Origin: Candidatus Latescibacterota bacterium
GTDB lineage: Bacteria; Latescibacterota; UBA2968
Length of the DNA stretch: 64,000 nucleotides
NCBI GenBank assembly: GCA_965204745.1
Contig: OZ242010.1
Coordinates: forward strand, 2,272,001 to 2,336,000
Direction of reading: 5' to 3'
The notes below the pieces were generated by a model, which worked only from the letters and a program-made list of their open reading frames with translations, did no database searches and was not told the DNA's origin. Of this stretch, positions 6,413 through 63,131 are shown in pieces (the stretch's first letter is position 1; each line of letters begins with the position of its first letter). The translations under genes were made by a program, and so were the position numbers.

Positions 6413-6860
6413 TACCAATTTGATTTGATTTTATATCCGCATCCTGCCTCATATCAGGGATGAATGAGGAACAGACATTGCTTGTCTAAAGCGTTTAGCC
6501 CTAAAGCCTCGTTGGTTGCCTTTGATGCCTTCGGCGACTTACTTTTTTTCAACAGCAAAAAAAGTAAGCGAGCGGGGTACAACTGCCCCAGCAGTTCAAA
6601 AATGCCGCTCTCAAACGCCGAGAGGCTTGCACAGCGCAAATCGCTTTTGTAACAGGACGATATGCGCCGGCCTGCAAAGTGGGTTGCATAATGGATGTTG
6701 GTTGCGAGACGGCCTTGCGCGCTGTGCGTGATGGCTTTAGCTGATGGTCTTTTGCGATGGCATGGTTGCGATGGCTTCTCTAAATGACTGCGGAACGCAA
6801 GGGTATCACGGACTAGTAGCATACCGCATCACATTAGGACAATAACAATTCAATTTGGTA
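6413..6860. mobile_element. MITE of about 450 bp with terminal inverted repeats and TAA target duplication
   Basis: Ends TACCAATTTGATTTG / CAATTCAATTTGGTA, with TAA on both flanks. Interior is homologous to 15975-16326. No credible ORF. Confidence 0.75.
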
Positions 6861-6869
6861 TAAGAACGC

Positions 6870-8972
6870 TCACAGGTTGATTTCAAACGCGCAGTAGAGG
6901 CCGAAGGGGGCCGCGGGGATGATGGAGGGGGCCGGACCGCCAAAGCCTTGGGTGTCGTATTTTTGATCGGTCAGGTTTTTGGCGTTGATGCGGAAGGTCA
7001 CGCGCTTGTAAGTGTGCGATGCCGAGGCGTCCCACGTCCACACAGCCGCGATTTGGTACTCATTGTCCGGGGCGATGAACTGGCGGGTGACGTAGCGCGT
7101 GCCGAGGCCAAATTCCAAGCCATTATCCCAACCGATGGCGGTCCACACGTTGAGAATGTGGCGCGGGGAAAAGGCGGGCGCGTTTCCGGATCGGTCGGTG
7201 GGCTGATAGACGACGCCGGTTTGCGTGAACACGGGAACGATTTCCGCGAACCGGGTGAGCGTGGCATCGGAAAATGCGTAGGACAAAAAGGTGTGCCAGT
7301 TTCGCACCGGGCGCAGCATCACTTCGAGTTCGATGCCGCGAGATCGCTGGTCGCCCTCTTGTTGGGTGATGCCCGTGGCGTCGGGAATGGCGATGTTGTT
7401 TTTGGTCAAATTGTAAAACGCGACAGAGGCGTGCAAGCGGTTGTCCATGAGGTATTTTTTCGCGCCCACTTCAATTTGCGCGCTCTCTTCGGTTTGCCGA
7501 GGGCCGGCGACTCGGGTGGAGGGCGGGGCAAAGGCCCTGCCCGCATTGGCGTAAAACGAGAGGTCCGCAGTCGGCGAGAACACCAGCCCGGCCATGGGAC
7601 TCAGTTTATTGTACTCTCGCGCCGTGTTTGTGAGGGGGTCGTCGTAATCGATGCGGTCGTAGCGCGCGCCGAGGAAGGCTTGAGCGCGGTCCGAAAAGGC
7701 CATGCGGTTCACGATGTAGGGCGCGATGACCAGACTTCTGGCATCCGCGAATTGGTACGGGGAGCTTTCGGGCAACTGGCTCGCGGTTTCCGTGGGCGAG
7801 GCCAGGTCAATGGGGAGCAGATTGGCTGTGTCTAAGGTGAATTTGTCTTTCCACTGCATCAGTTCTAGCCCTGCCAACAAGGTGTGTTCAACGCGGCCGG
7901 TTGAGAATGTGAACAGCAATTCGGCCTGATTGCCCAAGACTTTTTGGCGGTCGTCCAAGAGCAACAAGGTGCGGTAGATGTCCAACCCCTGCTGGGCATT
8001 GGGGAAAATGGCACTGAACAAGGTGCCGTCCGATACCCACGAGAAATCCGTGTAATAGAGTTTGTCGCGCAAGGTGACGCGCTTGGACAGGCGAGATTGC
8101 ACATCGAATCGGGCGCGGTAAATTTTTTGGTCGGACGTGTCAAAGGGCGATTGGTACGACTGCGTGCGCGGCACTTCGGCCACGCTTCCGTTGACGATGG
8201 GCAGGCCCGAGTCCGGTTTGTATTTGCTCGTGACGTATTCAAAATTGACGGTCGCGGTGGTGTTGTCATCGACCCGCCAGGTCGCGGCCGGGTTGATGGC
8301 CCACAAGCCGCTGTTTTTGTCGTCTCGGTACCCGTTGGAAACTTGGCGCAGGGCATTGACGCGCAGGGCCGTGCCGCGTTCCAAATTCGCCCAGTTGCCG
8401 TCTATGGTGCCGCGCCCCGTGTTGTACGGGCCGTAAGAACCCGTCACTTGGAGGGCGTTTGAGAAAATGGGTTGTTTGCGGCTCAAGTTGACCGATCCAG
8501 ACAGGGGGTTGCCCCCGTATAAAAACGCGCCCGGGCCTTTGAGCACTTCCACGCGCTCCAAGTTGTAGAGGTGGTAAAATGTGGCTTCTGGCTCAGACGC
8601 GCCATCGGTGAGCACCAAGCCGCTGGTGAGCGAATCGAACCCGCGAATGACGAAGAAATCCGTGACTCCAGAGATGGTTTGGATGTTGACGCCGCTGATG
8701 TTTCGCAGCGCGTCTCCCAAAACCACGCCGCTTTGATGCTCGAACAAGCCGTGATTGACCACGCCGATGCTGGCCGGGGTCAATCGGATGGGCACTGGGA
8801 TTTTGGTCGCCACCGTGCTGACCGTGGGGACTTTTTCCTTGCTCTCCGTCACCACGATCTCCTCGCCCGCATAAACGGGCAGTTCGCTTTCTTCTTCCGC
8901 GTCCTCTGCAAAGATGAGGTTTGTCGAGAGGCAGAGGATACAGGTCAGTGTGAAGAAGTGGCGGAGGTGCAT
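6870..8972 (-). CDS. TonB-dependent receptor
   Basis: Signal peptide, EEIVVT TonB box-like, ERVEVLKGPGAFLYG plug motif, beta-barrel pattern, NAKNLTDQKY near the C-terminus. Confidence 0.93.
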   Translation of the reverse strand: MHLRHFFTLTCILCLSTNLIFAEDAEEESELPVYAGEEIVVTESKEKVPTVSTVATKIPVPIRLTPASIGVVNHGLFEHQSGVVLGDALRNISGVNIQTISGVTDFFVIRGFDSLTSGLVLTDGASEPEATFYHLYNLERVEVLKGPGAFLYGGNPLSGSVNLSRKQPIFSNALQVTGSYGPYNTGRGTIDGNWANLERGTALRVNALRQVSNGYRDDKNSGLWAINPAATWRVDDNTTATVNFEYVTSKYKPDSGLPIVNGSVAEVPRTQSYQSPFDTSDQKIYRARFDVQSRLSKRVTLRDKLYYTDFSWVSDGTLFSAIFPNAQQGLDIYRTLLLLDDRQKVLGNQAELLFTFSTGRVEHTLLAGLELMQWKDKFTLDTANLLPIDLASPTETASQLPESSPYQFADARSLVIAPYIVNRMAFSDRAQAFLGARYDRIDYDDPLTNTAREYNKLSPMAGLVFSPTADLSFYANAGRAFAPPSTRVAGPRQTEESAQIEVGAKKYLMDNRLHASVAFYNLTKNNIAIPDATGITQQEGDQRSRGIELEVMLRPVRNWHTFLSYAFSDATLTRFAEIVPVFTQTGVVYQPTDRSGNAPAFSPRHILNVWTAIGWDNGLEFGLGTRYVTRQFIAPDNEYQIAAVWTWDASASHTYKRVTFRINAKNLTDQKYDTQGFGGPAPSIIPAAPFGLYCAFEINL

Positions 8973-9049
8973 GGAAATCTCCTTGGCGTAGTGGTTAGAC
9001 GGCTTAAACGGTTTATCGAGAAAATCAAGTCCTGACGTTCCGCAGTATC

Positions 9050-9656
9050 GGGGCCTACCCCCCTAGCCCCCGTTACTCGCTACGCTTCGTTGTAGGCTAC
9101 GCCTGTGCCTGCGAGGAAGGGGGGAACGGTGAGCGGTTTTGCGAAGGTATTGATGGGGTTTTTTAATCGCTTTATGCCCTATCGGGACCTACCCCCCTAG
9201 CCCCCCTTCCTGCGAGGAAGGGGGGAACAGTGAGCGGTTTTGCGAGGGCATTGATGAGGGTTTTTAATCGCCTTATCCCCTCGGTCAACGCCATCGGAGC
9301 AACCAGAGCGAGAAGCCATCAAAGGGACTTTACTCCCCTTTCCTCGTAGGAAAGGGGCCGGGGGATAGGTCCCCTCGCAAAACGCCATCAGAGCAACCAG
9401 AGCGAGAAGCCATCAAAGGCACTTTACTCTCCTTTCCTCATAGGAAAGGGGCCGGGGGATAGGTCCCCTCGCAAAACGCCATCAGAGCAACCAGACCGAG
9501 AAGCCATCAAAGGGATTTTACTCCCCTTTCCTCGTAGGAAAGGGGCCGGGGGATAGGTCCCCTCGCAAAACGCCATCAGAGCAACCAGACCGAGAAGCCA
9601 TCAAAGGGACTTTACTCCCCTTTCCTCGTAGGAAAGGGGCCGGGGGATAGGTCCCC
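9050..9656. repeat. REP-like family A cluster including four tandem 94-bp units (9290-9656)
   Basis: Units start at about 9290, 9384, 9478 and 9572; each has a CCCCTTTCCTCGTAGGAAAGGGG-type hairpin. Confidence 0.9.
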
Positions 9657-10868
9657 ATCCGATATATTCAAACACGCGATTTTGTGCATGTCGCGGATGA
9701 ACAATTTGCCGTTGGCGAGTGTGGGGGCGGTCCAGCAAGTGCCTGACAGGACTTGCGCGTTGGCTTTTTCGCGGAAGGCTTCGGGCGATGCCTCGGCCAG
9801 TGCGAGTTTGCCCTTGTCGCTCAAGATGATCAAATGCCCATCCGCGTAGATGAGCGATCCTTTGCCATACCCGCGCTGCCGCCACTGCTGTTCGCCCGTG
9901 CTGGCGTGGATACATTTTAGGTTCGAGTTGTCAAACCCGTAGAGGTAGTCGCCGAGCAAGATGGAGGTGCTGAAATGATTTTTCATGACGCGGCTTTCCC
10001 ACACTTTTGTGACGTTCAAGCCCTCGCCGCGTTGTTCGATTTGCAAGAGGGCCGCGCCGTGGTCGTAGCCCGAAGAAATGAAGATGCGATTTGGGGGCAC
10101 GACAATGGGCGTGGCGATGTTCAGGTCGTACTGGGTCTCCCAGGGAAATCGCCAGTAGAGCGCGCCATCGGCGGGCGAGAGGCCAACGGCTGCTTCGCCA
10201 GAGACAAAGACCACTTGGCGAGTGCCCGCGAGGGTCGTGGCGATGGGCGAGGAGTAGGATACGATGTCGTTTTGAGACGCCCATTTGATCTCCCCGGTTG
10301 TTTTGTCCAATGCGAGAAAGGTGCCGCGGCGCGCGCCGGTTTCCAAGAGCAGGAGGCCGTTTTCGACCAGCGGCGAAGTTGAAAACCCGAATCTCGGGAT
10401 GCGACTGCCCAATTCGTCGCGCAGGTTGACCTGCCACAATTTTTTGCCATCCCTGGCGTCGAGGGCGTACAACACGCCCGTCGCGCCGAGCACGAAGACC
10501 CGATTCTCATCCACAGTGGGTTGGGCCCGAGGGCCGTTCCCGCCCTGGCGTTCATGGAATTTGGCACCGGTTTTGAATCGCCAGATTTCCGCGCCGGTCG
10601 CTTCGTCGAGGCAGATGGCAAATTCGCTTTCGCGGTCAGAGAACATGGTATAGACCCGTCTATCGGCGACCGAGATCCCGGAAAAGCCCTCGCCGAGTTC
10701 TGTTTCCCAAACGACGGGCGGCCCGTCTGCGGGCCAAGTCGTCAACAGCCCGGTTTCAGATGAATGCCCAGTCCTATCAGGCCCAAGCCACTGCGGCCAG
10801 TCGGCATGCGCGAGATGAAACGAAAAACAAATTGCTATGGCGATGAACGAGTAATGCCGGTATGACAT
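9612..10868 (-). CDS. Secreted PQQ-binding-like (BamB-type) beta-propeller protein
   Basis: Signal peptide, DWPQWLGPDR, repeated ALDxxTGxxxW blades; last residues are encoded by the REP repeat. Confidence 0.9.
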   Translation of the reverse strand: MSYRHYSFIAIAICFSFHLAHADWPQWLGPDRTGHSSETGLLTTWPADGPPVVWETELGEGFSGISVADRRVYTMFSDRESEFAICLDEATGAEIWRFKTGAKFHERQGGNGPRAQPTVDENRVFVLGATGVLYALDARDGKKLWQVNLRDELGSRIPRFGFSTSPLVENGLLLLETGARRGTFLALDKTTGEIKWASQNDIVSYSSPIATTLAGTRQVVFVSGEAAVGLSPADGALYWRFPWETQYDLNIATPIVVPPNRIFISSGYDHGAALLQIEQRGEGLNVTKVWESRVMKNHFSTSILLGDYLYGFDNSNLKCIHASTGEQQWRQRGYGKGSLIYADGHLIILSDKGKLALAEASPEAFREKANAQVLSGTCWTAPTLANGKLFIRDMHKIACLNISDGDLSPGPFPTRKGE

Positions 10869-10916
10869 GATATTCTCCTGTAAAAAAAAATGAACAAGTG
10901 ACGCCTAAAATGCAAT

Positions 10917-12263
10917 TTAGGTGTAGCGGGCGTTGCGGTATTTGGGGTGGTAAAATTCGGGGAGGAGTTGGTCCACGCGCAGGAGCCCCTGGCGGCTTAG
11001 GGTGATGCTGTGGGAATCGAAAGACAACATCGCGGCATCGCGGAGTTCGCGGTAGATCGGCCCGAATCGCTGCAGGATATCCACGCCGAATTTGTCTTGA
11101 AAATACGCGGTTTCGATGCGCCCGAGTTTGAGTTGCAGGATCATTTCCCTGATCAGACGCTCTTCTTCTGTGGGCACAAAAGATCGGTTGATCGGGAGTT
11201 GCCCGCGGCCCGCGGCGTCGATGTACGGGTCCCAGTGCGTCTGGTTTTGGAAGTGCATGCCGCCTGCGTGGGAAAATGAGGCCACGCCCGTGCCGATGAG
11301 GTCCGCGCTGCGCCACAGGGCGTCCCGATAGATGAATTTGTTTGGGCGACCTTTTTTTGTCAAGGTGTACGCGCTAGAGGGTTCATAGCCCGCGGTGGCG
11401 AATTGTTCGATAGCGTAATCGTGCCATTCCCGCTTGGTTTGCCAGTCTGCGACCGGCACCCCATTGCCGCTGCGGATGGCCTGCGAGTACGTGGTGTTGA
11501 AGGGCAGTTCCATCTGGTAAATGGTCACGCTGTCCGCATCGAGGTCGATGGTGCGCTGCACTGTGTCTCGCCACGTCTCGAATACCTCCCCCACCATGCC
11601 CGCGATGAGATCCACGTTGACCTGTGCGAATCGTTGCGCTTTGACCCATGGCATGACCGCGTAAATTTCCTTGCTGACGTGGGCGCGGCCATTTTCGCGC
11701 AAGATGTCGTCGTTCAAATTTTCCAACCCCAAGCTCAAGCGCGTGACCCCGATATCGCGGATGGCCTCAACTTTGGATTGCGACAAAGTGCCCGGCTCGC
11801 ATTCAAATGCCACTTCTTCGGCAGCGTCCCACGGCATCGCGGCTTTGACCCGATCCACCAAAGCGCGTAGGTGTTTGACGCTGATGTAGGACGGGGTTCC
11901 GCCCCCAAAATAGATGAAGTGCAATGCGCGGCCCGCAATGCGCGGCAGGGTGCTGTACGTTTCGACTTCGCGGGCCAGGGCGTCCAGGTACGTTTGGATT
12001 TCAGAACTGTTGCGCCCGGTATAAACCCTGAAATAACAGAATTTGCACCGCTTGCGGCAAAAGGGGATGTGCATGTACAAGCCCAAGGGGATGGCTTTGT
12101 CCGCGGGGTCAGCGGCGTGCAACATGGCTTTGATGCGTGCCGTGTTTTCGTCTCGCCAAAAGGAATAGGGCGGGTAATTGGACACAAAGACGCTGCCCAC
12201 GTCTGTTTCCTTCCAAGCCTTGCGGGTGGTAGCCGGCTCTGGAATCAGGATTTGTTCGCTCAT
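10917..12263 (-). CDS. HemN-like (class C) radical SAM enzyme
   Basis: YMHIPFCRKRCKFCYF (CxxxCxxC), YFGGGTPS, RLSLG, NVDLIAG; ATGA-coupled to the upstream gene. Confidence 0.9.
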   Translation of the reverse strand: MSEQILIPEPATTRKAWKETDVGSVFVSNYPPYSFWRDENTARIKAMLHAADPADKAIPLGLYMHIPFCRKRCKFCYFRVYTGRNSSEIQTYLDALAREVETYSTLPRIAGRALHFIYFGGGTPSYISVKHLRALVDRVKAAMPWDAAEEVAFECEPGTLSQSKVEAIRDIGVTRLSLGLENLNDDILRENGRAHVSKEIYAVMPWVKAQRFAQVNVDLIAGMVGEVFETWRDTVQRTIDLDADSVTIYQMELPFNTTYSQAIRSGNGVPVADWQTKREWHDYAIEQFATAGYEPSSAYTLTKKGRPNKFIYRDALWRSADLIGTGVASFSHAGGMHFQNQTHWDPYIDAAGRGQLPINRSFVPTEEERLIREMILQLKLGRIETAYFQDKFGVDILQRFGPIYRELRDAAMLSFDSHSITLSRQGLLRVDQLLPEFYHPKYRNARYT

Positions 12264-53136: not shown

Positions 53137-53335
53137 CAACTGACAACTGACAACTGACAACTGACAACTGACAACTGACAACTGACAACTGACAACTGAC
53201 AACTGACAACTGACAACTGACAACTGACAACTGACAACTGACAACTGACAACTGACAACTGACAACTGACAACTGACAACTGACAACTGACAACTGACAA
53301 CTGACAACTGACAACTGACAACTGACAACTGACAA
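53137..53335. repeat. Perfect heptamer VNTR (CAACTGA), about 28 copies
   Basis: 199 bp of uninterrupted repeat ending at the RBS of the sulfatase. Confidence 0.97.
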
Positions 53336-53349
53336 GGAAAGGACACCCC

Positions 53350-54726
53350 ATGACCGCTCCCAACATCATCTTCATCCTCACCGACGACCAAGGGCCGTGG
53401 GCCGCTGGCTGTTATGGCAACTCGGAAATCCGCACGCCCAATATCGACCGCATTGCCGCCACCGGGATGCGATTTGACAATTTCTTTGTCACCATCCCCG
53501 TGTGTTCCCCGAGCCGCGCTTCTTTTTTGACGGGGCGCATCCCGTCTCAGCACGGGGTCCACGACTGGATTCGAGAGGGCAATACCGGGCCTGATGCGGC
53601 ATCGTATCTTCAGGATGAAATTTGCTATACCGATATTTTGGCCGCGCACGGCTATACGTGTGGCCTGTCCGGGAAGTGGCATTTGGGCAACAGCACCTTG
53701 GCACAGCACGGGTTCTCGCATTGGTTTGCCCACGAAAAGGGCGGGGGGCCGTACAACGGCGCCAAACTGGTTCGCAATGGCGAACTCGTCACCGTGCCGA
53801 GGTACGTCACCACTGCGATCACGGATGACGCCTTGGCATTCATCGACGCGCACGCCAAAGACGACAATCCCTTTTACCTCAGCGTTCACTACACCGCGCC
53901 GCACAGCCCATGGACCGGGCATCCCCAAGACATCGTGGATTCGTACGACGACTGCCCGTTTGAATCCTGCCCGCAAGAAGACCCGCACCCGTGGGCCGGT
54001 GGCTTGAGCAAGAATTTGGGCAACCGCGAAAGCCTCAAGGGTTATTTTGCCGCTGTCACGGCGATGGACGCCGACGTGGGGCGCGTCCTCGACAAAATCG
54101 AGGCCGAGGGGATTCGCGACAACACCCTCGTCGTCTTCACGTCTGACAATGGCTTTTCCTGTGGGCATCACGGGTTTTGGGGCAAGGGCAATGGCACGCG
54201 GCCCTTGAACATGTACGAAAACTCCATCAAAGTGCCTTTTTTGGCGAGCCATCCCGGGGTGATTCCCGAAGGCGTCGCGCAACCCGCTATGGCATCGGGA
54301 TACGATTTTATGCCCACCCTGCTCGACTACCTCGGCCTGCCCCTGCCCGAAGGCCGCCCCTATCCCGGTCAATCCTTTCTCGCCGCGCTCAAAGGCGAAG
54401 AAGATACCGCCCGCGACAATGTCGTCATCTACGACGAATACGGCACCACGCGCATGATTCGCACGGTCGATTGGAAATACGTCCACCGCTATCCCGACGG
54501 CCCCAACGAACTCTACGACCTGCGAAACGATCCGGACGAACGCGACAATCTCGTGGATCACCCCGCGCGGACCAACCGCGTCAAAGCGATGAAAGCGCAG
54601 ATGGAAACGTGGTTCGCAACGTACGTCGTTCCAGACAAAGACGGTCGCGATTACACGGTCAGCGGCGGCGGTCAACTCCGTCCCGTGGGCAGAAACTGGG
54701 AAGACGAGCGCGAGCCGTTTGCGTGA
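53350..54726 (+). CDS. Sulfatase
   Basis: PNIIFILTDDQG, CSPSRASFLTG, GKWH, SDNG, HG.WGK. Confidence 0.95.
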   Translation: MTAPNIIFILTDDQGPWAAGCYGNSEIRTPNIDRIAATGMRFDNFFVTIPVCSPSRASFLTGRIPSQHGVHDWIREGNTGPDAASYLQDEICYTDILAAHGYTCGLSGKWHLGNSTLAQHGFSHWFAHEKGGGPYNGAKLVRNGELVTVPRYVTTAITDDALAFIDAHAKDDNPFYLSVHYTAPHSPWTGHPQDIVDSYDDCPFESCPQEDPHPWAGGLSKNLGNRESLKGYFAAVTAMDADVGRVLDKIEAEGIRDNTLVVFTSDNGFSCGHHGFWGKGNGTRPLNMYENSIKVPFLASHPGVIPEGVAQPAMASGYDFMPTLLDYLGLPLPEGRPYPGQSFLAALKGEEDTARDNVVIYDEYGTTRMIRTVDWKYVHRYPDGPNELYDLRNDPDERDNLVDHPARTNRVKAMKAQMETWFATYVVPDKDGRDYTVSGGGQLRPVGRNWEDEREPFA

Positions 54727-55024
54727 AGGGGCAGTTGTCAGTCGTCAGTTGTCAGTTGTCAGTCCACCCAACCGCCCAACCCCAAGCGGTCAGCCCCCGC
54801 ATCCATCAACCCGTAGGGACAGTCCCCCGTTCCCACACCGCCGGACGGATGCGCGAGGAACGCACACGGCGGGGTTGGGCGAGGCAGGGCACGCTACGGG
54901 AGTCAATTTTCTGGGAAGGGCGAGGATGGCGGCGTTTCACAGCATGACAGCACCTTGTGTGCTTACTCACAACATGAAAAACTACCGATGCTCTCGTCCG
55001 ATTTTTTTCATTTGGAGGCAAGAA

Positions 55025-55135
55025 ATGACCACATTTGAAGTTCAGGTCGATAACGAGTTGGAATTTGCCGAGGCATTCCAAAATTTTTACAACCTGATCG
55101 GAATCAAAAAAGAAATGGTGGAGGGGCGAGAATGA
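55025..55135 (+). CDS. Small hypothetical protein (36 aa)
   Basis: GGAGG RBS, MTTFEVQVDNELEF..., ATGA overlap with the next gene. Confidence 0.5.
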   Translation: MTTFEVQVDNELEFAEAFQNFYNLIGIKKEMVEGRE

Positions 55136-55446
55136 AGATCAAACACATCATCGCTGGCGTCCTCATCGCCATCGCCATCGTCATTTTGGCAACACTTGCT
55201 CGGGATAGGCTCGCAAACAAAAGAGTCGCAGAGGGGTTGGCACATGCCGAGTTCGTTTGGAACATGCAGACGGTGCGAAGTATTGCACGCACCGAGATGC
55301 GCGATGCTGAGGGGAAGGTGTACTATGGCATCCTCTTGCGCCACAATGTGAAATTCGCAGAACGTAAGGTGCTTCTGTACAACACGCGCAAAGAGCGCGA
55401 CGATGTCTTTGGACACATGGAAGCACAGATCTACGAAAAACGCTAA
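55132..55446 (+). CDS. Hypothetical protein with N-terminal TM helix
   Basis: MKIKHIIAGVLIAIAIVILA; GGAGG upstream. Confidence 0.6.
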   Translation: MKIKHIIAGVLIAIAIVILATLARDRLANKRVAEGLAHAEFVWNMQTVRSIARTEMRDAEGKVYYGILLRHNVKFAERKVLLYNTRKERDDVFGHMEAQIYEKR

Positions 55447-55460
55447 GGTATCGACCTGTC

Positions 55461-55548
55461 CCAGGTTCTCAAACCCAGAGCATATCCTGCGATATGGCTT
55501 GATTTTCCCGATAAACTGCTCAATTCGGTTGCATGGTTCGTAAATGTC
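55461..55548 (-). pseudogene. 88-bp IS5-family transposase remnant (copy 2)
   Basis: Ungapped match to 999-1086, 13 mismatches by hand count. Confidence 0.65.
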
Positions 55549-55587
55549 AACACAACCTAGTATCGGTTGGAGTACCTTGAGATAACC

Positions 55588-56910
55588 ATGAACACCAGCG
55601 ACCTCAAACCCTACCCCCACTACAAGCCCTCCGGCGTGGAATGGCTCGGCGACGTGCCCTCGCATTGGGAGGTGTTGCCAAACCGTGCGATTTTTGCCGA
55701 GGTGAACGAGCGAGGGCATCCACAAGCAGAGATGCTTTCGGTTACGATAGCAGAGGGCGTTATTCGCCAGCGGACATTGTTGGAAGACAGGTCAAAGAAA
55801 GATACTTCGCGGCTCGACAGGTCGGCCTACAAACTCGTTCAACCTGGGGACATCGCATACAACAAGATGCGAGCATGGCAGGGTGCAATCGGAATGTCTG
55901 AGTACCGCGGTATCGTCAGCCCTGCGTATATCGTGCAACGGCCACGGAATGGGGCAAACGCACGCTACTTGCACTATTTGTTGAGAACGCCGGCATTTGC
56001 AACAGAAGCCGAGCGATGGTCTTATGGCATCGCTTCGGATATGTGGAGTTTGCGACCAGAGCACTTCAAGATGATCTATGCGTGCGTTCCACCCCTCGCC
56101 GAGCAAGCCGCTATCGTCCGCTATCTCGATCACACCGACGGGCGCATCCGCCGCTACCTCCGCAGTAGGGAACGGCTCCTCGAGTTGCTCAAAGAGTATC
56201 GGCAGGCCGTCATCCACGAGGCGGTCACGCAAGGGCTTGACCCGGATGTGCCCCTCAAGCCCTCGGGCGTGGAATGGATCGGCGACATACCCGCGCATTG
56301 GGAGGTGCGGCGGTTGAAGCATTGGGTCGAAATAAATGAGGCGATGCTACCCGAAACAACTGATCCCGACTTTGAATTTCGTTATTTGGAAATCGGCGCA
56401 GTAGGCACAGGTGTACTCGTCGAGGAACCTGCCACCATTCGTTTCGCTCATGCGCCATCGAGGGCTAGGCGCATCGTCAAAAGCGGAGATACCATCATCT
56501 CCACAGTGAGGACGTACTTGAAAGCGGTTTGGTTTGCCGAAGAAGTGAACGACGCCTTGATCTGCTCGACGGGCTTTGCGGTTCTTACTCCGCGCCGTGC
56601 GACTGTGCCCAAATTCGTGAGTTACGTGGTCCAAGACAACGCATTTACCGACCGCGTAACAGCGGAATCGGTTGGCATTGCGTATCCGGCCATTGCTGAA
56701 AGTCGATTTCGTTCATTTCACGTCTGCGTTCCGCCCCTCGCCGAGCAAACCGCTATCGCCGCGTATTTGGACAAACAGACCGCCGCTATCGCCGCCGCTA
56801 TGGCGCGTGCCCAGCGGGAGATCGACTTGTTGAGCGAATACCGCCTGCGCCTGATCGCCGACGTGGTCACCGGGCAAGTGGATGTGCGGGATGAACGCCC
56901 TGCCCGTTGA
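55588..56910 (+). CDS. hsdS: Type I R-M specificity subunit (orphan in this window)
   Basis: Two KPSGVEW.GD.P.HWEV blocks, two PPLAEQ blocks, two TRDs, LIADVVTGQVDVR end. Confidence 0.93.
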   Translation: MNTSDLKPYPHYKPSGVEWLGDVPSHWEVLPNRAIFAEVNERGHPQAEMLSVTIAEGVIRQRTLLEDRSKKDTSRLDRSAYKLVQPGDIAYNKMRAWQGAIGMSEYRGIVSPAYIVQRPRNGANARYLHYLLRTPAFATEAERWSYGIASDMWSLRPEHFKMIYACVPPLAEQAAIVRYLDHTDGRIRRYLRSRERLLELLKEYRQAVIHEAVTQGLDPDVPLKPSGVEWIGDIPAHWEVRRLKHWVEINEAMLPETTDPDFEFRYLEIGAVGTGVLVEEPATIRFAHAPSRARRIVKSGDTIISTVRTYLKAVWFAEEVNDALICSTGFAVLTPRRATVPKFVSYVVQDNAFTDRVTAESVGIAYPAIAESRFRSFHVCVPPLAEQTAIAAYLDKQTAAIAAAMARAQREIDLLSEYRLRLIADVVTGQVDVRDERPAR

Positions 56911-56989
56911 TGGCATTGCCAACCGATGGGAGCCAACGCCGGTTTGGTTTGTGATTTGGGCTGAAAGCAGTACTGAAACAGCTATGCCC

Positions 56990-57138
56990 TGCACGCACAC
57001 GGCGGGGTTGGGTGAAGCAGGGCACGCACGGGCAGACGGGTGGATGAGCGGGGAACGCACACGGGGCGGCGGTAGTGAGATGGGCACGCACGGGCGGATG
57101 GCCGGACGGGCGGATAATCGGAACAGGAGACTTAAACC
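56990..57138 (+). repeat. GC-rich GGGCACGCAC spacer/leader repeat preceding each AAA paralogue
   Basis: Related sequence at 54858-54900, 58714-58849, 60425-60554 and 62140-62157; the three leaders end GGAACAGGAGACTTAAACC-ATG. Confidence 0.8.
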
Positions 57139-58713
57139 ATGCGCTTCTTCAACACTGCCGGCCCCACCAAGCCCGAAAAGCATTATTGCATCCCACCGCT
57201 GGAACGCTTGGACATAGACGATGTACTCGCCCTGATCCGAGATGAAAAGTACTTCGTTCTGCACGCGCCCCGGCAGACGGGCAAGACCTCGTCTCTGCTG
57301 GCTCTGCGCGACTTGCTCAACGCCGAGGGCCTCTACCGTTGCGTGTACGTCAATGTCGAAGGTGGGCAAGCCGCACGCGAAGATGTGGAACAGGTCATGC
57401 GTACCATTCTGGGCGAGTTGGCTCTCCGAGCACTCTCGGCGCTGGACGACGGGTTTCTCGACGCGAGTTGGCCCGACATCTTAACCAAGTACGGTCCTCA
57501 CGGTGCCTTGCGTGCAGCATTGACGCGCTGGGTAGCGTCGGATGCGAAACCTTTGGTATTGCTCATCGACGAAATCGACGCGCTGATCGGGGACTCGCTT
57601 CTGTCCGTGTTGCGGCAGTTGCGGGCCGGCTACGATTTGCGTCCCGAGGAGTTTCCGCAAAGCGTGGTACTGTGCGGGATGCGCGATGTGCGCGATTACC
57701 GCATCCATTCCAGTTCTGCAAACGCGACCATCACCGGGGGCAGTCCGTTTAACATCAAAGCACAATCGTTGCGCTTGGGCGATTTTGCACAGGACGAGGT
57801 ACAAGCCTTGCTTGACCAACACACCGAGGAAACGGGTCAGGTGTTCACGCCAGACGCGCAGGAGATGATCTGGACGCAAACCCAAGGGCAACCGTGGCTG
57901 GTCAATGCTTTGGCGGATCAAGCCTGCTTCCGAGATGGCGCCGTGGATCGGCGCGATCCGGTCACCGCCGCCGCCATCATCGAAGCGAAAGAGCACCTCA
58001 TCCTGCGCCGCGAAACGCATTTGGAGCAGTTGACCGACAAACTCAAAGAGGAGCGCGTGCAGCGCGTCGTGGAACCGCTGTTGAGCGGGGCTGAGACACG
58101 CCACTTCACGGATCGGGATTTGGAGTATGTGCGCGATCTCGGGCTCGTGGCTCAAGATCGCCCCTTGCGTATCGCCAATCCGATCTACGCCGAGGTCGTC
58201 CCGCGCGAATTGACATGGGTGATCCAAGAGGAGTTCGATCAGGACACCGCTTGGTACGTCCATGCCGATGGCAGTTTGGATGTGGTCAAATTGCTGGTCA
58301 CGTTCCAGACCTTCTTCCGCGAACACTCCGAGCATTGGGTCAAGCGATTCGCGTATCGAGAGGCCGGCCCGCAACTGTTGCTTCAAGCGTTTTTGCAACG
58401 GATCATGAACAGCGGCGGGCGCATCGAGCGCGAGTATGGCTTGGGTCGCATGCGAACCGATCTGCTCATCATCTGGCCGCAAGGCGAGCGGACGCGCAAG
58501 TTCGTGATCGAGTGCAAAATTCTCCACAAGGGCTTGGATCAGACCATCGCCGCGGGGTTGTCACAGACCGCCGAGTATATGGATCGTTGCGATGCAGAAG
58601 CGGGTCATCTGGTGATTTTTGACCGGCGCGAGGGCAGACGTTGGGAGGACAAGGTATTTCGGGATCGCCGAATGTCGGACAGCGGGGTAGAGATCGATAT
58701 CTGGGGCATGTGA
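57139..58713 (+). CDS. AAA-like P-loop ATPase with C-terminal PD-(D/E)xK-like domain, copy 1
   Basis: MRFFNTAGP, APRQTGKT, LLIDEID, SPFNIK, RTDLLI...VIECK. Confidence 0.88.
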   Translation: MRFFNTAGPTKPEKHYCIPPLERLDIDDVLALIRDEKYFVLHAPRQTGKTSSLLALRDLLNAEGLYRCVYVNVEGGQAAREDVEQVMRTILGELALRALSALDDGFLDASWPDILTKYGPHGALRAALTRWVASDAKPLVLLIDEIDALIGDSLLSVLRQLRAGYDLRPEEFPQSVVLCGMRDVRDYRIHSSSANATITGGSPFNIKAQSLRLGDFAQDEVQALLDQHTEETGQVFTPDAQEMIWTQTQGQPWLVNALADQACFRDGAVDRRDPVTAAAIIEAKEHLILRRETHLEQLTDKLKEERVQRVVEPLLSGAETRHFTDRDLEYVRDLGLVAQDRPLRIANPIYAEVVPRELTWVIQEEFDQDTAWYVHADGSLDVVKLLVTFQTFFREHSEHWVKRFAYREAGPQLLLQAFLQRIMNSGGRIEREYGLGRMRTDLLIIWPQGERTRKFVIECKILHKGLDQTIAAGLSQTAEYMDRCDAEAGHLVIFDRREGRRWEDKVFRDRRMSDSGVEIDIWGM

Positions 58714-58849
58714 GGCAAGCGGCGGTGGCGAGGCAGGGCACGCACGGGTGGCGGGCGGATGAGTGGGGCACGCACGGGTGGCCGGGCAGATGAGTGGGGC
58801 ACGGGCGGACGGGCGGATGGGCGGATAATTGGAACAGGAGACTTAAACC

Positions 58850-60424
58850 ATGCGCTTCTTCAACACTGCCGGCCCCACCAAGCCCGAAAAGCATTATTGC
58901 ATCCCACCGCTGGAACGCTTGGACATAGACGATGTACTCGCCCTGATCCGAGATGAAAAGTACTTCGTCCTGCACGCGCCCCGGCAGACGGGCAAGACCT
59001 CGGCTCTGCTGGCTCTGCGCGACTTGCTCAACGCCGAGGGCCTCTACCGTTGCGTGTACGTCAATGTCGAAGGTGGGCAAGCCATGCGCGAAGACGTGGA
59101 ACAAGTCATGCGTACCATTCTGGCAACATTGGCGTCTCGGGCGCGCTTGACCTTGGGCGACGAATTTTTGGGTAAAGTCTGGCCCGGCATTCTCGCTGAA
59201 GTCGGGCCGGGTGCCGCACTCCAAGAAACGTTGACGCGCTGGGCCGCGGCAGATGCGAAACCTTTGGTGCTACTCATCGACGAAATCGACGCGCTGATCG
59301 GAGACTCGCTCCTGTCCGTGTTGCGGCAGTTGCGGGCCGGCTACGATTTGCGTCCCGAGGAGTTTCCGCAAAGCGTGGTACTGTGCGGGATGCGCGATGT
59401 GCGCGATTATCGCATCCATTCCAGTTCTGCAAACGCGACCATCGCCGGGGGCAGTCCGTTTAACATCAAGGCGCGATCATTGCGCTTGGGCGACTTCTCG
59501 CAGGACGAGGTACAGACCCTGCTCGCACAACACACCGAGGAAACGGGTCAGGTGTTCACGCCAGACGCGCAGGAGATGATCTGGACGCAGACCCAAGGGC
59601 AACCGTGGCTGGTCAATGCCTTGGCGGATCAAGTCTGCTTCCGCGATGGCGCCGCCAATCGGCGCGATCCGGTCACTGCCGCCGCTATCATCGAGGCGAA
59701 AGAGCACCTCATCCTGCGCCGCGAGACGCATTTGGAACAGTTGACCGACAAGCTCAAAGAGGAGCGCGTGCAACGCGTCGTGGAACCGCTGTTGAGCGGG
59801 GCCGAGACACGCCACTTCACGGATCGAGATTTGGAGTATGTGCGCGATCTCGGTCTCGTGGCTCAGGATCGCCCCTTGCGTATCGCCAATCCGATCTACG
59901 CCGAGGTCGTCCCGCGCGAACTGACATGGGTGATCCAAGAGGAGTTCGATCAGGACACCGCTTGGTACGTCCATGCCGATGGCAGCTTGGATGTGGTCAA
60001 ATTGCTGACCGCGTTCCAGACCTTCTTCCGCGAACACGCCGAGCATTGGGTCGAGCGATTCGCGTATCGAGAGGCCGGCCCGCAACTGTTGCTTCAAGCG
60101 TTTTTGCAACGGATCATGAACAGCGGCGGGCGCATCGAGCGCGAGTATGGCTTGGGTCGCATGCGAACCGATCTGCTCATCATCTGGCCGCAGGGCGAGC
60201 GGACGCGCAAGTTCGTGATCGAGTGCAAAATCCTCCACAAGGGCTTGGATCAGACCATCGCCGCGGGGTTGTCACAGACCGCCGAGTATATGGATCGTTG
60301 CGATGCAGAAGCGGGTCATCTGGTAGTTTTCGACCGGCGCGATGGCAGGCGTTGGGAGGACAAGGTATTTCGAGATCGCCGGGCATCGGACAGCGGGGTA
60401 GAGATCGACATCTGGGGCATGTGA
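58850..60424 (+). CDS. AAA-like ATPase with PD-(D/E)xK-like domain, copy 2
   Basis: Near-identical paralogue of copy 1. Confidence 0.88.
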   Translation: MRFFNTAGPTKPEKHYCIPPLERLDIDDVLALIRDEKYFVLHAPRQTGKTSALLALRDLLNAEGLYRCVYVNVEGGQAMREDVEQVMRTILATLASRARLTLGDEFLGKVWPGILAEVGPGAALQETLTRWAAADAKPLVLLIDEIDALIGDSLLSVLRQLRAGYDLRPEEFPQSVVLCGMRDVRDYRIHSSSANATIAGGSPFNIKARSLRLGDFSQDEVQTLLAQHTEETGQVFTPDAQEMIWTQTQGQPWLVNALADQVCFRDGAANRRDPVTAAAIIEAKEHLILRRETHLEQLTDKLKEERVQRVVEPLLSGAETRHFTDRDLEYVRDLGLVAQDRPLRIANPIYAEVVPRELTWVIQEEFDQDTAWYVHADGSLDVVKLLTAFQTFFREHAEHWVERFAYREAGPQLLLQAFLQRIMNSGGRIEREYGLGRMRTDLLIIWPQGERTRKFVIECKILHKGLDQTIAAGLSQTAEYMDRCDAEAGHLVVFDRRDGRRWEDKVFRDRRASDSGVEIDIWGM

Positions 60425-60554
60425 GGCAAGCGGCGGCGGGGCAGGGCACGCACATGGCGGGGTTGGGTGAAGCAGGGGACGCACACGGGGCGGTGGTGGT
60501 GAGATGGGCACGCACGGGCAGACGGGCGGATAATCGGAACAGGAGACTTAAACC

Positions 60555-62126
60555 ATGCGCTTCTTCAACACAAGTGGGCCTGTCGTGGCCGCGGATCACT
60601 ACTGTATCCCACCCTTGGAACGGGTTGACCTCGCCGAGATTCGCAGACTCATCCGCGACAAACGCTACTTCGTCCTGCACGCGCCCCGGCAGACGGGCAA
60701 GACCTCGGCTCTGCTGGCTCTGCGCGACTTGCTCAACGCCGAGGGCCTCTACCGTTGCGTGTACGTCAATGTCGAAGGTGGGCAAGCCGCACGCGAAGAC
60801 GTGGAACAGGTCATGCGTACCATTTTGGCAGGTTTGGCGTCTCGGGCACGTTCAATCGGCGACGAATTTCTGGACGGGGTTTGGCTCGACATCTTGACCA
60901 AGTACGGGCCTCATGCTGCACTACAGGAGGCATTGACGCGCTGGGCAGCGTCAGATGCGAAACCTTTGGTGCTACTCATCGACGAAATCGACGCGCTGAT
61001 CGGGGACTCGCTTCTGTCCGTGTTGCGGCAGTTGCGATCTGGCTACGATTTGCGTCCCGAGGAGTTTCCGCAAAGCGTGGTACTGTGCGGGATGCGCGAT
61101 GTGCGCGATTACCGCATCCATTCCAGTTCTGCAAATGCCACCATCGCCGGGGGCAGTCCGTTTAACATCAAGGCGCGATCATTGCGCTTGGGCGACTTCT
61201 CGCAGGACGAGGTACAAGCCTTGCTCGACCAACACACCGAGGAAACGGGTCAGGTGTTCACGCCAGACGCGCAGAAGATGATCTGGACGCAAACCCAAGG
61301 GCAACCGTGGCTGGTCAATGCCTTGGCGGATCAAGCCTGCTTCCGCGATGGCGCCGCCAATCGGCGCGATCCGGTCACTGCCGCCGCCATCATCGAGGCG
61401 AAAGAGCACCTCATCCTGCGCCGCGAAACGCATTTGGAACAGTTGACCGACAAGCTCAAAGAGGAGCGCGTGCAGCGCGTCGTTGAACCGCTGTTGAGCG
61501 GGGCCGAGACACGCCACTTCACGGATCGGGATTTGGAGTATGTGCGCGATCTCGGGCTCGTGGCTCAGGATCGCCCCTTGCGTATCGCCAATCCGATCTA
61601 CGCCGAGGTCGTCCCGCGCGAACTGACATGGGTGATCCAAGAGGAGTTCGATCAGGACACCGCTTGGTACGTCCATGCCGATGGCAGCTTGGACGTGGTC
61701 AAATTGTTGACCGCGTTCCAGACCTTCTTCCGCGAACACGCCGAGCATTGGGTCGAGCGATTCGCATATCGAGAGGCCGGCCCGCAACTGTTGCTTCAAG
61801 CGTTTTTGCAACGGATCATGAACAGCGGCGGGCGCATCGAGCGCGAGTATGGCTTGGGTCGCATGCGAACCGATCTGCTCATCATCTGGCCGCAGGACGA
61901 GCGGACGCGCAAGTTCGTGATCGAGTGCAAAATCCTCCACAAGGGCTTGGATCAGACCATCGCCGCGGGGTTGTCACAGACCGCCGAGTATATGGATCGT
62001 TGCGATGCAGAAGCGGGTCATCTGGTGATTTTCGACCAGCGCGAGGGCAGACGTTGGGAGGACAAGGTATTTCGAGATCGCCGGGCATCGGACAGCGGGG
62101 TAGAGATCGACATCTGGGGGATGTAA
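60555..62126 (+). CDS. AAA-like ATPase with PD-(D/E)xK-like domain, copy 3
   Basis: Near-identical paralogue with a distinct N-terminal ~37 aa. Confidence 0.88.
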   Translation: MRFFNTSGPVVAADHYCIPPLERVDLAEIRRLIRDKRYFVLHAPRQTGKTSALLALRDLLNAEGLYRCVYVNVEGGQAAREDVEQVMRTILAGLASRARSIGDEFLDGVWLDILTKYGPHAALQEALTRWAASDAKPLVLLIDEIDALIGDSLLSVLRQLRSGYDLRPEEFPQSVVLCGMRDVRDYRIHSSSANATIAGGSPFNIKARSLRLGDFSQDEVQALLDQHTEETGQVFTPDAQKMIWTQTQGQPWLVNALADQACFRDGAANRRDPVTAAAIIEAKEHLILRRETHLEQLTDKLKEERVQRVVEPLLSGAETRHFTDRDLEYVRDLGLVAQDRPLRIANPIYAEVVPRELTWVIQEEFDQDTAWYVHADGSLDVVKLLTAFQTFFREHAEHWVERFAYREAGPQLLLQAFLQRIMNSGGRIEREYGLGRMRTDLLIIWPQDERTRKFVIECKILHKGLDQTIAAGLSQTAEYMDRCDAEAGHLVIFDQREGRRWEDKVFRDRRASDSGVEIDIWGM

Positions 62127-62192
62127 GTAAAGTCGGTGGTGGAGAGGCAGGGCACACATCAAAGGGCTTCGCGCAATGACGAGGAGGATATC

Positions 62193-63131
62193 ATGCCCAT
62201 GAAATCCGTTTATACGATAGCTGATTACAAAGAAAAAAGTCCCGTCGCCGTGGAGAAAAATGACGCCATCAAATCCGTGTATATGATGACCGATTTGGAA
62301 GGCGTGGCCGGGGTCGACGATTGGGACCCGAGGCACCGCGAGGATGCGACAACCGCAAAAGGCGTGTACGACCGCGCCGAAATGCAACGGTTGTTGACCG
62401 GCGAAGTGAACGCGGCGATCAGAGGGTTGTATCTCGCAGGCGTAGAAGAAGTGATCGTCAATGACGCCCATGGCGCGGGGCGCACGATTTTGTCAGAAGA
62501 TTTGGTTTCGATTGCGGGCGCGCATCCGTTTTCCGTGAAGTTGGTGCAAGGGGTCAATCGGCCGTGCTGGTTGCCGGGCTTGTCGCCGCGATGTGACGCG
62601 CTGCTCCAAGTGGGCATGCACGCCATGACCGGCACGCCCAATGGCTGCCTCGCGCATTCGATGAGCCGCGACGCGGTCTATCGCGTAAATGGCTCGGAAG
62701 TGGGCGAAATGGAAATGGCCGCGTACTTGTGTGGCCAACTCGGCGTTCCTTGGATCTTTACGTCGGGCGATCTGCACGCCTGCACCGAGTCCGAGCACTG
62801 GGTCGATGGCATCGTCACGGCGCCCGTGAAAGAGGGCTTGGGCGAATTGTGCGCCATCCACCTCTCGCCCATAGATGCGCGTACGCTCATTCACGACCGC
62901 GTCATCGACGCCATCGCAGCAACCCAAAATATCGCACCGCTCGTCGCCCAAGGCGATGTGGTGATGGAAGTCACACATCCCACCCCCGGTCGCCTCGCCG
63001 CACGCGAAGGCGTCGAGCGCGTGGATGACCACACCATCCGATGCACGGGCACCTCCTTCTGGGAGGTGTTCCACCGCGTCGTTTATGGCAAAGCTGATTT
63101 TCCAATACCCCAACAGGAGATTTCACCATGA
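62193..63131 (+). CDS. M55 family (DppA-like) D-aminopeptidase
   Basis: TDLEGVAGV, EVNAA, NDAHG, GMHA, LAHS, GE, SGD. Confidence 0.88.
   Translation: MPMKSVYTIADYKEKSPVAVEKNDAIKSVYMMTDLEGVAGVDDWDPRHREDATTAKGVYDRAEMQRLLTGEVNAAIRGLYLAGVEEVIVNDAHGAGRTILSEDLVSIAGAHPFSVKLVQGVNRPCWLPGLSPRCDALLQVGMHAMTGTPNGCLAHSMSRDAVYRVNGSEVGEMEMAAYLCGQLGVPWIFTSGDLHACTESEHWVDGIVTAPVKEGLGELCAIHLSPIDARTLIHDRVIDAIAATQNIAPLVAQGDVVMEVTHPTPGRLAAREGVERVDDHTIRCTGTSFWEVFHRVVYGKADFPIPQQEISP

Follow-up and report, generated by a model that had tools for sequence, protein, structure and literature searches.

The array and its two variable modules

The window analysed here, a stretch of 64,000 nucleotides from a Candidatus Latescibacterota bacterium (assembly GCA_965204745.1, contig OZ242010.1, positions 2,272,001 to 2,336,000, forward strand), carries three tandem genes, T1, T2 and T3, each encoding a predicted ATPase with a predicted C-terminal PD-(D/E)xK nuclease domain, and, upstream of them, an orphan specificity gene (hsdS) of a Type I restriction-modification (R-M) system (Table 1). 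Our main finding is that the three genes share a nearly uniform backbone interrupted by two discrete variable modules, one at the N-terminus and one, here called the cassette, in a helical insert between the Walker A and Walker B motifs, and that the types of these modules are older than the species that now carry them.

Table 1. Positions of the array genes, their modules and spacers, and the upstream hsdS (window coordinates).
Feature	Position	Strand	Remarks
T1, ATPase-nuclease	57139-58713	+	524 aa; N-terminal module type A, helical-insert cassette type 1
T2, ATPase-nuclease	58850-60424	+	524 aa; N-terminal type A, cassette type 2 (cassette ~59111-59254)
T3, ATPase-nuclease	60555-62126	+	523 aa; N-terminal type B, cassette type 3 (~60816-60956, one codon shorter)
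T1 N-terminal variable module, codons 6-37	57154-57249	+	T1 = T2, 58% to T3; two deep tree clades, support 99
T1 variable helical-insert cassette, codons 88-135	57400-57543	+	modelled helices 83-102, 106-118, 123-133, between strand β2 and Walker B strand
T1 C-terminal PD-(D/E)xK nuclease domain (predicted)	58330-58710	+	D441, E458, K460; α-β-β-β-α-β core
Spacer 1	56991-57138	+	G-rich 31-nt repeats (GGGCACGCACGGG type), then AGGAG and ATG; belongs to duplicated unit
Spacer 2	58714-58849	+	G-rich 31-nt repeats and ribosome-binding site
Spacer 3	60425-60554	+	G-rich 31-nt repeats and ribosome-binding site
hsdS, Type I R-M specificity gene, orphan	55567-56910	+	two target-recognition halves split by conserved repeats; PADLOC Specificity_I, Pfam Methylase_S

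All three open reading frames (ORFs) are intact, with start-to-start distances of 1711 and 1705 bp, and outside codons 6-37 and 91-134 they are 94.9-97.2% identical at the DNA level, in full agreement with a first-pass annotation of the window, which had described three nearly identical units of ~1.7 kb. Walker A, Walker B and the nuclease residues D, E and K are retained in each copy. Codon by codon, the differences pile up at 6-37, where T1 equals T2 and T3 stands apart, and at 91-134, where all three differ. DNA identity over codons 92-135 drops to 56% (T1/T2), 73% (T1/T3) and 70.5% (T2/T3), as expected from the strong divergence of residues ~92-134 noted in that annotation, and the peptide strings it quoted correspond exactly to residues 92-127 of the three copies. 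It was likewise right that copies 1 and 2 share their N-terminus (identical over codons 1-39); its view that a single segment is hypervariable has, however, to be replaced by one of two variable modules, codons 6-37 and ~88-135. The N-terminus ascribed to copy 3 as its own indeed differs from that of T1 and T2 (58% identity over codons 7-37), but is not private to T3, since a dispersed copy at 4476 kb of the same genome (G000) has it as well (99-100% identity).

Sliding-window identity across the paralogues, a comparison that had been proposed together with the first description of the array, resolved two discrete modules on a near-uniform backbone. Among the 12 copies of the genome, T3 pairs with the dispersed copy at the N-terminus and T1 pairs with T2; in the helical insert it is T1 that pairs with the dispersed copy (98-99%), and the best partners of T2 and T3 in the genome reach 80% and 82%, respectively. 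Over the rest of the protein these four copies are 93-100% alike. The dispersed copy (G000:C1:4476379-4479321; positions 8379-11324 of locus L069) thus combines a T3-type N-terminus with a T1-type cassette; it is followed directly by a second orphan hsdS and then by a TnpB/IS605-type gene.

The same pattern emerges from an extended set of 59 distinct full-length genes from this genome and from fetched loci, which yield 1711 pairs, 50 of them with a backbone identity of at least 0.90. Between 50 and 64% of these close-backbone pairs are less than 85% identical in windows 1-44 and 78-143, compared with 0-12% in windows within 144-517. Identity is bimodal in both modules: for the insert, 15 of the 50 pairs reach 0.95 or more and 34 stay under 0.9, and for the N-terminus, 16 reach 0.95 or more and 24 stay under 0.7. 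All four combinations of same or different N-terminus with same or different insert are found; the pairs of loci L014 (backbone 0.990, insert 0.612, N-terminus 1.000) and L027 (0.961, 0.651 and 1.000) exemplify one of them. The conserved stretches around Walker A and B would act as anchors, so that the modules recombine into all combinations, and since they do so on one scaffold, the array encodes three different module combinations.

In the AlphaFold2 model the insert consists of three helices located between strand β2 (residues 67-72) and the Walker B strand (139-144). The helical nature and the location proposed at first thus stand, but the model gives three helices where a helix pair had been suggested. 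Invariant hydrophobic residues (L91, L94, A95, F106, L107, W111, I114, L115, L128 and W131) alternate with variable positions, at each of which just two to five residues are common, and the insert is also the least conserved stretch in an alignment of 44 distant relatives. Its location presumably corresponds to that of the DNA-contacting initiator-specific motif of initiator-clade AAA+ proteins, a correspondence which we regard as an analogy only.

Concerted backbone and old cassettes

Phylogenetic trees were built for 16 genes from three genomes, separately for the backbone (codons 140-524), the insert and the N-terminal module. In the backbone tree, the genes of each genome fall together (support 100, 100 and 99). 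The insert tree, in turn, groups them by type and across the three genomes, namely {T2, L026, L020a, L020d}, {T1, the 4476-kb copy, L013a} and {T3, L018, L013b, L020b, L020c}, and each of the two deep clades of the N-terminal tree contains genes from all three genomes. Approximately unbiased (AU) tests reject a clade of the four local copies for the insert (p 0.006) and for the N-terminal module (p 3e-6); on the backbone data, clades corresponding to insert types 2 and 3 are likewise rejected (p 1.7e-33 and 2.6e-17), both sets having been named after inspection of the insert tree.

Substitution rates were estimated according to Nei and Gojobori. When inserts of the same type are compared between genomes, the synonymous divergence (dS) of the insert is 0.11-0.60 and its ratio of non-synonymous to synonymous divergence (dN/dS) 0.11-0.37, with a backbone dS of 0.41-0.64. 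When different types are compared within a genome, the insert exhibits a dS of 0.60-1.9, a dN of 0.14-0.38 and a dN/dS of 0.19-0.35, with a backbone dS of 0.04-0.24. Synonymous divergence between insert types is thus saturated, and the backbone dN/dS is 0.07-0.24. Parsimony counts over the 59 genes give a ratio of non-synonymous to synonymous changes of 0.34 for the insert, 0.20 overall and 0.12-0.14 for the ATPase core. As judged from these ratios, the insert appears to be relaxed or mildly diversified, with a regional dN/dS that never exceeds 1.

Cassettes of the same type are conserved across genomes and dS between types is high, and hence the cassette types are older than these species. 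Since the genome contains no donor for the cassettes of T2 and T3, recent import from a local paralogue offers no explanation for them. Taken together, the trees and rates show distinct functional alleles retained over the long term, on a backbone that has been homogenised since within each genome by unequal crossing-over and gene conversion. Gene conversion had been invoked at the outset, and the grouping of backbones by genome together with their far smaller dS within (0.04-0.24) than between (0.41-0.64) genomes is in keeping with it. The diversifying selection (dN > dS) that was invoked along with it finds no counterpart in the insert ratios either between or within types; the comparisons indicate instead old cassettes, under purifying selection and reshuffled by recombination, and not positive selection.

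Two other origins of the variable segments were considered and rejected. The T3 segment had been read as a mosaic of T1 and T2, but represents a third cassette type with its nearest relatives in other genomes (86% identity to L018), and it can thus not be regarded as the product of a recent recombination between T1 and T2. The action of a diversity-generating retroelement, or of local hypermutation, is at odds with the presence of the same cassette, at 98-99% identity, in copies 2.1 Mb apart and with the conservation of cassettes across genomes.

Copy number also varies at the syntenic locus. Downstream of an AcrB gene and a sulfatase gene, the corresponding slot holds one copy in L026 (type 2), two in L013 (types 1 and 3) and three in the window (types 1, 2 and 3); the L013 pair is followed by an M55 peptidase gene, as is the array in the window, where a 104-aa ORF and hsdS precede it. 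Probably the ancestor carried an array with three or more types, from which different copies were then lost.

Predicted protein architecture

The assignment of ATPase and PD-(D/E)xK nuclease made in the first reading was borne out by the Walker motifs, by fold matches and by the invariant D, E and K. Walker A (PRQTGKTS, residues 44-51) and Walker B (LLIDEID, 141-147) are present in T1, T2 and T3, and G48, K49, T50, D144 and E145 are invariant or nearly so across the 44 diverse relatives. The full-length AlphaFold2 model, computed from the 44-row alignment, has a mean predicted local distance difference test score (pLDDT) of 91.1 and a predicted template modelling score (pTM) of 0.88. When searched with VIA-align, its residues 1-356 (ATPase, lid and winged helix) best resemble the archaeal Walker ATPases of family PF01637, PAB2304 (2qen; Z 17.1, 319 residues, root mean square deviation 4.0) and SSO1545 (2fna; Z 15.7, 316 residues), followed by an NLR (Z 15.2) and Cdc6/Orc1 (2qby_B; Z 14.6); plant NLRs, CED-4, Cdc6/Orc1, MuB, TnsC and MalT overall score between Z 12 and 15. 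Foldseek matches the model to 2qen with E 4.2e-9. The N-terminal ~355 residues are thus a predicted ATPase with lid and winged helix of the Arch_ATPase/ORC-Cdc6/STAND-like kind. Archaeal ATPases of the PAB2304/SSO1545 type are multicopy, and to our knowledge no function has been assigned to them. They comprise ~350 residues and lack the nuclease domain that T1-T3 carry, and at the sequence level T1-T3 have no relative in the PDB.

The C-terminal 127 residues modelled alone (pLDDT 80.8) place D441 (RTDLLI) on strand 2 and E458-C-K460 (VIECK) on strand 3, all of them invariant in our alignment (A3). A Foldseek search with this domain alone returned nothing at E<=1e-3. A VIA-align comparison with 48,161 chains gave Z values of 5-7.2 in a list dominated by PD-(D/E)xK nucleases, among them McrC (6.3), EcoT38I (6.2), AF1548 (6.1) and Hjc, NucS and PaqCI (5.6), as well as Can2, Cap4, Cas4, MspJI and AspBHI; of the 50 matches listed we take at least 20, from entry titles and the folds known to us, to be such nucleases. 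Because these Z values are middling, the fold assignment rests on the match list, the motif and weak Pfam links taken together. On this basis, the C-terminal ~125 residues are a predicted PD-(D/E)xK nuclease with D, E and K intact. Homodimer predictions for residues 1-395 scored 0.00 in two runs for which no controls were run, and count neither way.

Pfam detects only the generic AAA_22, AAA_35 and AAA_16 in T1-T3, plus a sub-threshold PDDEXK_9 (PF08011) in T3 alone (16.6 bits against a cut-off of 25.5); PF09820 does not match any of the three, and neither does PF01637 at E<=0.01. Among the 44 relatives at the same E-value, PF01637 (ATPase_2) matches 16 (best 1.4e-9), PDDEXK_9/PF08011 matches nine (best 4.7e-7) and AAA-ATPase_like/PF09820 matches eight (best 9.8e-7). 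With scores below cut-off and some relatives matching, T1-T3 are distant kin of the DUF1703 proteins (PF09820 + PF08011) but not members by the Pfam rule. A scan of T1 against NCBIfam yielded no family, and PDB sequence searches with T1 and with the 44-row profile gave weak generic P-loop matches only, including RADAR RdrA ('Archaeal ATPase', 8hr7) at E 0.14.

Distribution of the family

In addition to fragments, the genome contains 12 matches of near full length. Searching its ORFs of at least 150 aa with a profile sorts the family into 11 intact copies, one truncated copy beside an IS110 transposase gene and one fragment; beyond these the search found nothing (next match E 7.7e-4) and thereby rules out that three neighbouring ORFs of 521-535 aa with no assignment are distant members. 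The family occurs in 20 of 20 genomes of the same genus, where the matches per genome, broken copies counted, range from 1 to 19. Other genomes, too, have arrays, of two to five copies, the five-copy array being that of G016. It is present in 5 of 16 genomes of the sister family, and was not detected in any of four genomes from other genera of the same taxonomic family.

Related public loci are nearly all titled Candidatus Latescibacterota, with single matches at 77%, 64% and 55% identity in bins titled Gammaproteobacteria, Acidobacteriota and Alphaproteobacteria, respectively. The wider family comprises 5512 clusters (50% identity) at E<=1e-3, of which 1065 are found at E<=1e-30, and extends over many phyla; names in the ESM Atlas are limited to the likes of 'ATP-binding protein' or 'ORC1/DEAH AAA+ ATPase domain-containing protein'. 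Members of ~40% identity reside on cyanobacterial plasmids (16 plasmid records), and a search of 50,697 phage records gave no match. On Pseudanabaena plasmid NZ_CP112875.1 (L098, positions 1-7539) a 39%-identical member lies beside a DISARM drmA/DUF1998 gene and near a NACHT gene, and plasmid NZ_AP017564.1 carries a member near parAB. One protein (P0121, 993 aa) matches the query in two stretches and hence looks like two fused family units.

The orphan hsdS and the genomic neighbourhood

The hsdS of the window matches PADLOC Specificity_I at 5.9e-112 over residues 13-444, contains internal direct repeats (D6 and D7) and has the sulfatase gene, the 104-aa ORF and T1 as its neighbours. Neither hsdM nor hsdR was found beside it; the closest N6_Mtase match of the genome is ~383 kb away, and the gene is therefore an orphan, as had been recognised. 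Its best paralogue (68% identity; G000 3414819-3416123) adjoins an hsdM. Compared with the second orphan hsdS at 4478 kb, its conserved parts are 90-92% identical in DNA and its recognition halves are unrelated; the frame of that second gene stops before the conserved C-terminal region, beyond which the DNA homology runs on. The genome is very rich in R-M genes, with 21 N6_Mtase and 23 Methylase_S matches, and hsdS pieces cluster at 3.400-3.416 Mb beside an hsdM.

In other genomes, the genes most closely related to T1-T3 lie inside Type I R-M operons. Locus L027 reads hsdR-hsdM-[copy][copy]-TIR-SLOG/ThsB_TIR-hsdS-HicA, locus L014 reads hsdR-hsdM-[copy][copy]-SIR2-HerA-hsdS, and locus L022 reads [copy]-TIR-SLOG/TIR-hsdS. 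The window hsdS is probably the relic of an R-M operon of this kind. Between family genes and hsdS, both L027 (9275-11376) and L022 (8582-10752) contain a TIR_2 gene followed by an SLOG (LD_cluster2)-ThsB_TIR fusion; of this pair, the second gene alone matches PADLOC, and weakly so (ThsB, PDC-M50B).

In the genome of the window, the copies occupy nine places, some of them with restriction or mobile genes nearby. Upstream of the 4476-kb copy lie GmrSD_N and AAA_15/21-DUF3696 ATPase genes, the copy at 22 kb adjoins a DUF2357/PDDEXK_7 gene, and a fragment is located near an Eco57I-type enzyme. The remaining copies are found among peptidase, transporter and metabolic genes.

Discussion

We hold the structural and evolutionary description of the array given above with high confidence. 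As to its function, the best explanation overall, to which we give about an even chance of being correct, is a homogenised ATPase-nuclease scaffold with two swappable modules that carries out cue-triggered cleavage of foreign DNA. The proteins would assemble in an ATP-dependent manner, as do Cdc6/Orc1 or STAND proteins, on a nucleic-acid or protein cue, and assembly would bring the PD-(D/E)xK domains together and thereby license cleavage of foreign DNA. The cue or target of each paralogue may be set by the helical insert and the N-terminal module through their exposed faces, recombination in the invariant sequence around Walker A and Walker B would reshuffle the modules, and gene conversion would keep the catalytic scaffold uniform. 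The layout of the array likewise suggests, although it does not prove, a varied set of sensors directed against foreign DNA.

A role in conflict with foreign DNA, taken by itself, is a serious candidate that falls just short of an even chance. The candidate anti-phage array put forward in the first-pass annotation stays a circumstantial reading, favoured by the placement of relatives inside Type I R-M operons and not borne out by PADLOC. Time and again, genes found inside such operons have turned out to serve in defence, as documented for TgvAB (PMC11411939) and under the term 'guilt by embedding' (bioRxiv 10.1101/2024.01.29.577857). The latter work lists 3,231 embedded families, among which the family of T1-T3 may be included.

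Several observations weigh against a defence function. None of the 5027 models of PADLOC-DB v2.0.0 matches T1, T2 or T3 at E<=0.01, a check that the first-pass annotation had already named. Most copies of the family lie between ordinary metabolic genes. In a random sample of 118 of the 200 ORFs flanking the family at 51 loci (two per side), 20 matched PADLOC at E<=1e-10, which equals the rate of 20 in 135 ORFs drawn from ten genomes of the same genus (20 random regions of 9 kb); most of the control matches are generic ABC ATPases, regulators and repeats. When only R-M, TIR, SIR2 and Dpd models are counted, the figures become 11 of 118 (at six loci) and 1 of 135, for a class that was picked after the data had been seen. 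No site class with dN > dS was shown. Finally, adjacent copies differ in at least one module (identity below 0.80) in all 11 pairs from eight arrays, to which we give no weight because, by a rough estimate, chance is not an unlikely cause with two N-terminal and three or more cassette types.

The most serious alternative, albeit an improbable one, is that of a neutral divergence barrier, in which conversion tracts halt at patches too diverged for homologous recombination, so that the backbone is homogenised around them and old patches persist with no selection favouring diversity and without conferring specificity. It would accommodate that dN/dS is below 1 in every comparison, that synonymous divergence between types is saturated (dS 0.6-1.9), that the variable residues are situated on exposed and therefore change-tolerant faces of helices, and that adjacent copies differ as consistently as chance might have it. 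A passive barrier does not, however, readily account for the recurrence of the same three cassette and two N-terminal types in at least three genomes under within-type purifying selection as tight as that on the backbone (dN/dS 0.11-0.37), nor for a cassette that is better conserved than its backbone (0.947 vs 0.874 for L014b/L027a). Moreover, exchange of a whole module is seen: T1 and the 4476-kb copy share their cassette but differ in their N-terminus, and conversion can therefore cross the module regions.

Two further alternatives we consider to be quite improbable. Were the family a selfish, addictive or toxin-like nuclease spreading without benefit to the host, then its copy number of 1 to 19 among species, its many broken copies, the scattering of copies to unrelated loci, and the relatives at 55-77% identity in proteobacterial and acidobacterial bins and at ~40% on cyanobacterial plasmids would be readily understood. 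Yet no transposase, integrase or terminal repeats move with the unit, neighbouring insertion sequence elements vary from locus to locus, phage records lack the family, purifying selection extends along the whole protein, and no conserved antitoxin-like partner gene accompanies the copies. The paralogues might instead be sub-functionalised housekeeping enzymes that serve the DNA metabolism of the cell itself, in repair, recombination, resolution or the control of replication, in line with an ATPase resembling Cdc6/Orc1, RFC, MuB and TnsC, a nuclease resembling Hjc and NucS, and the location of many copies amid housekeeping genes. The patchiness of the family, which is missing from 4 of 4 genomes of other genera of the taxonomic family and from 11 of 16 sister-family genomes and varies in copy number with pseudogenes included, would nonetheless be unusual for a core function.

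Very improbable, in our judgement, is that T1-T3 are secreted symbiosis effectors acting on an animal host, as has been proposed for the expanded DUF1703 nucleases of the insect symbiont Cardinium cCpun. Sequencing runs bearing the sequence are labelled sponge or marine metagenomes, and the related DUF1703 expansion was described in a symbiont (PMC6387759). The invariant N-terminus (MRFFNTAGP...HYCIPPLER) contains, by eye and without a predictor, no hydrophobic signal-like stretch, and no secretion genes are adjacent. That the triplet is an assembly artefact, with strain variants of a single gene laid in tandem, hardly deserves credence, although no public contig crosses the whole array and a low-depth joint omits T2 and T3 in two runs, given that the genome is a single 5.48-Mb contig, that junction pieces are found in short-read data (see below) and that other genomes, too, carry arrays of 2-5 copies built on the same module logic.

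Returning to cue-triggered cleavage by a scaffold with swappable modules, comparison with known systems helps to delimit what is novel. STAND NTPases (NLR resistosomes, CED-4, MalT) and Cdc6/Orc1 share the NTPase-lid-winged-helix module (Z 12-15). The proposed logic of T1-T3, an oligomerising NTPase fused to a nuclease effector, would resemble that of Avs proteins. T1-T3, however, lack a C-terminal repeat sensor, comprise only 524 residues, carry the nuclease at the C-terminus and do not match the Avs models of PADLOC. The shuffling of target-recognition domains in HsdS offers a parallel in that there, too, paralogues swap two variable modules set between conserved anchors, as the window hsdS and its paralogue at 4478 kb illustrate; the proteins and folds are different, and of an R-M operon the window retains hsdS alone. 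Embedded defence genes such as PrrC, or TgvAB in VPI-2 of Vibrio cholerae (PMC11411939), are paralleled by the relatives of T1-T3 lying between hsdM and hsdS in L014 and L027.

Multicopy families of ATPases with a PD-(D/E)xK domain and recombination among paralogues are already known, the DUF1703 proteins of Cardinium being an example (PMC6387759). Like T1-T3, DUF1703 proteins combine an N-terminal ATPase with a C-terminal PD-(D/E)xK domain in ~520 aa, are multicopy and recombine among paralogues, and both represent multicopy expansions in host-associated bacteria. For the 25 DUF1703 paralogues of Cardinium cCpun, that report gives an average identity of 39% and recombination, with no homogenisation seen by its authors, in contrast to the present family, whose backbone is homogenised to 95-99% within a genome apart from the two cassettes. 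What is new is thus a sister family without a specific profile, its two-cassette design with trans-species types on a concerted scaffold, and its embedding in Type I R-M operons; our literature searches found no paper on the family of T1-T3 or on cassette-type concerted evolution in ATPase-nuclease paralogues.

It is tempting to go further and to speculate that such arrays constitute a germline-encoded combinatorial recognition repertoire, and the proteins a new class of single-polypeptide immune sensor-effectors, joining an ORC/STAND-like ATPase to a PD-(D/E)xK nuclease, with a specificity given by the N-terminal module and by the helical insert in the place of the initiator-specific motif, and with HsdS-like reshuffling of old alleles on a scaffold kept uniform by gene conversion, the recurrent location between hsdM and hsdS or next to orphan hsdS genes possibly reflecting cooperation with Type I R-M systems; we regard this extension as rather unlikely. 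The family has thousands of members in many phyla and no known function, and the array together with its sister-genome relatives represents a natural experiment that singles out ~30 and ~48 residues as candidates for setting specificity and provides, with three versions within the window, a ready-made allelic series. Should these proteins prove to act in defence, they would form a stand-alone ATPase-nuclease class absent from current defence catalogues, and would document in bacteria arrays of paralogues whose cassette alleles are shared between species, as is more familiar from the immune genes of eukaryotes. Otherwise, the locus would still provide a well-resolved example of concerted evolution in which certain segments are protected, at copy numbers of one, two and three in syntenic position.

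Junctions, spacers and repeats

Public short-read data were matched at 97% identity or above; no RNA run was listed among the sequencing runs with the sequence. Contigs of run X1 contain the T1 segment, the spacer/T2 start, the T2/T3 spacer leading into T3, the T3 N-terminus and the T3 segment without mismatch, and the piece at the hsdS/T1 junction is likewise mismatch-free; X1 is possibly the source sample of the window and hence does not count as independent support. Several copy-specific pieces are likewise present in runs that come from three further studies. Logan contigs measure 92-864 nt and none spans the triplet, so that the tandem order has no independent confirmation from short-read contigs. 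The bin of the T3 cassette has next to no depth in runs X3, X7 and X10. Two low-depth joints were seen, one leading from 58744 to 62181 and skipping T2 and T3 (depth 13.4 and 5.2 in its two runs, side 30), the other from 58749 back to 57104 (depth 7.07), which would place another copy ahead of a T1-type start. With sides of 30-38 letters, these weak joints hint, if real, at copy-number polymorphism among strains.

The spacer before each gene of the array is 130-150 bp long and contains ~31-nt repeats, followed by AGGAG and ATG; the homology of the dispersed copy to the T1 unit begins ~100 nt 5' of the ATG. Promoter and terminator scans of 54700-62400 returned sites no more numerous than in shuffled sequences. 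The G-rich ~31-nt repeats with the core GGGCACGCACGGG occur in the window at 54858-54927, upstream of the small ORF that precedes hsdS, and at 56991-57122, 58736-58819 and 60441-60546, where they fill the array spacers. The core is found 116 times in the genome (62 and 54 by strand), and such repeats flank about half of the copies of the family. They could have served as substrates for duplications.

A second, shorter repeat surrounds the sulfatase gene. Immediately upstream of it, at 53137-53335 of the window, the heptamer CAACTGA is repeated in perfect tandem (x 28.4), and immediately downstream, at 54732-54763, a short array of this heptamer stands in inverted orientation. A two-unit, 14-nt version of the heptamer (in the ACTGACA register) occurs ~590 times on both strands of the genome, and the heptamer thus represents a genome-wide repeat family.

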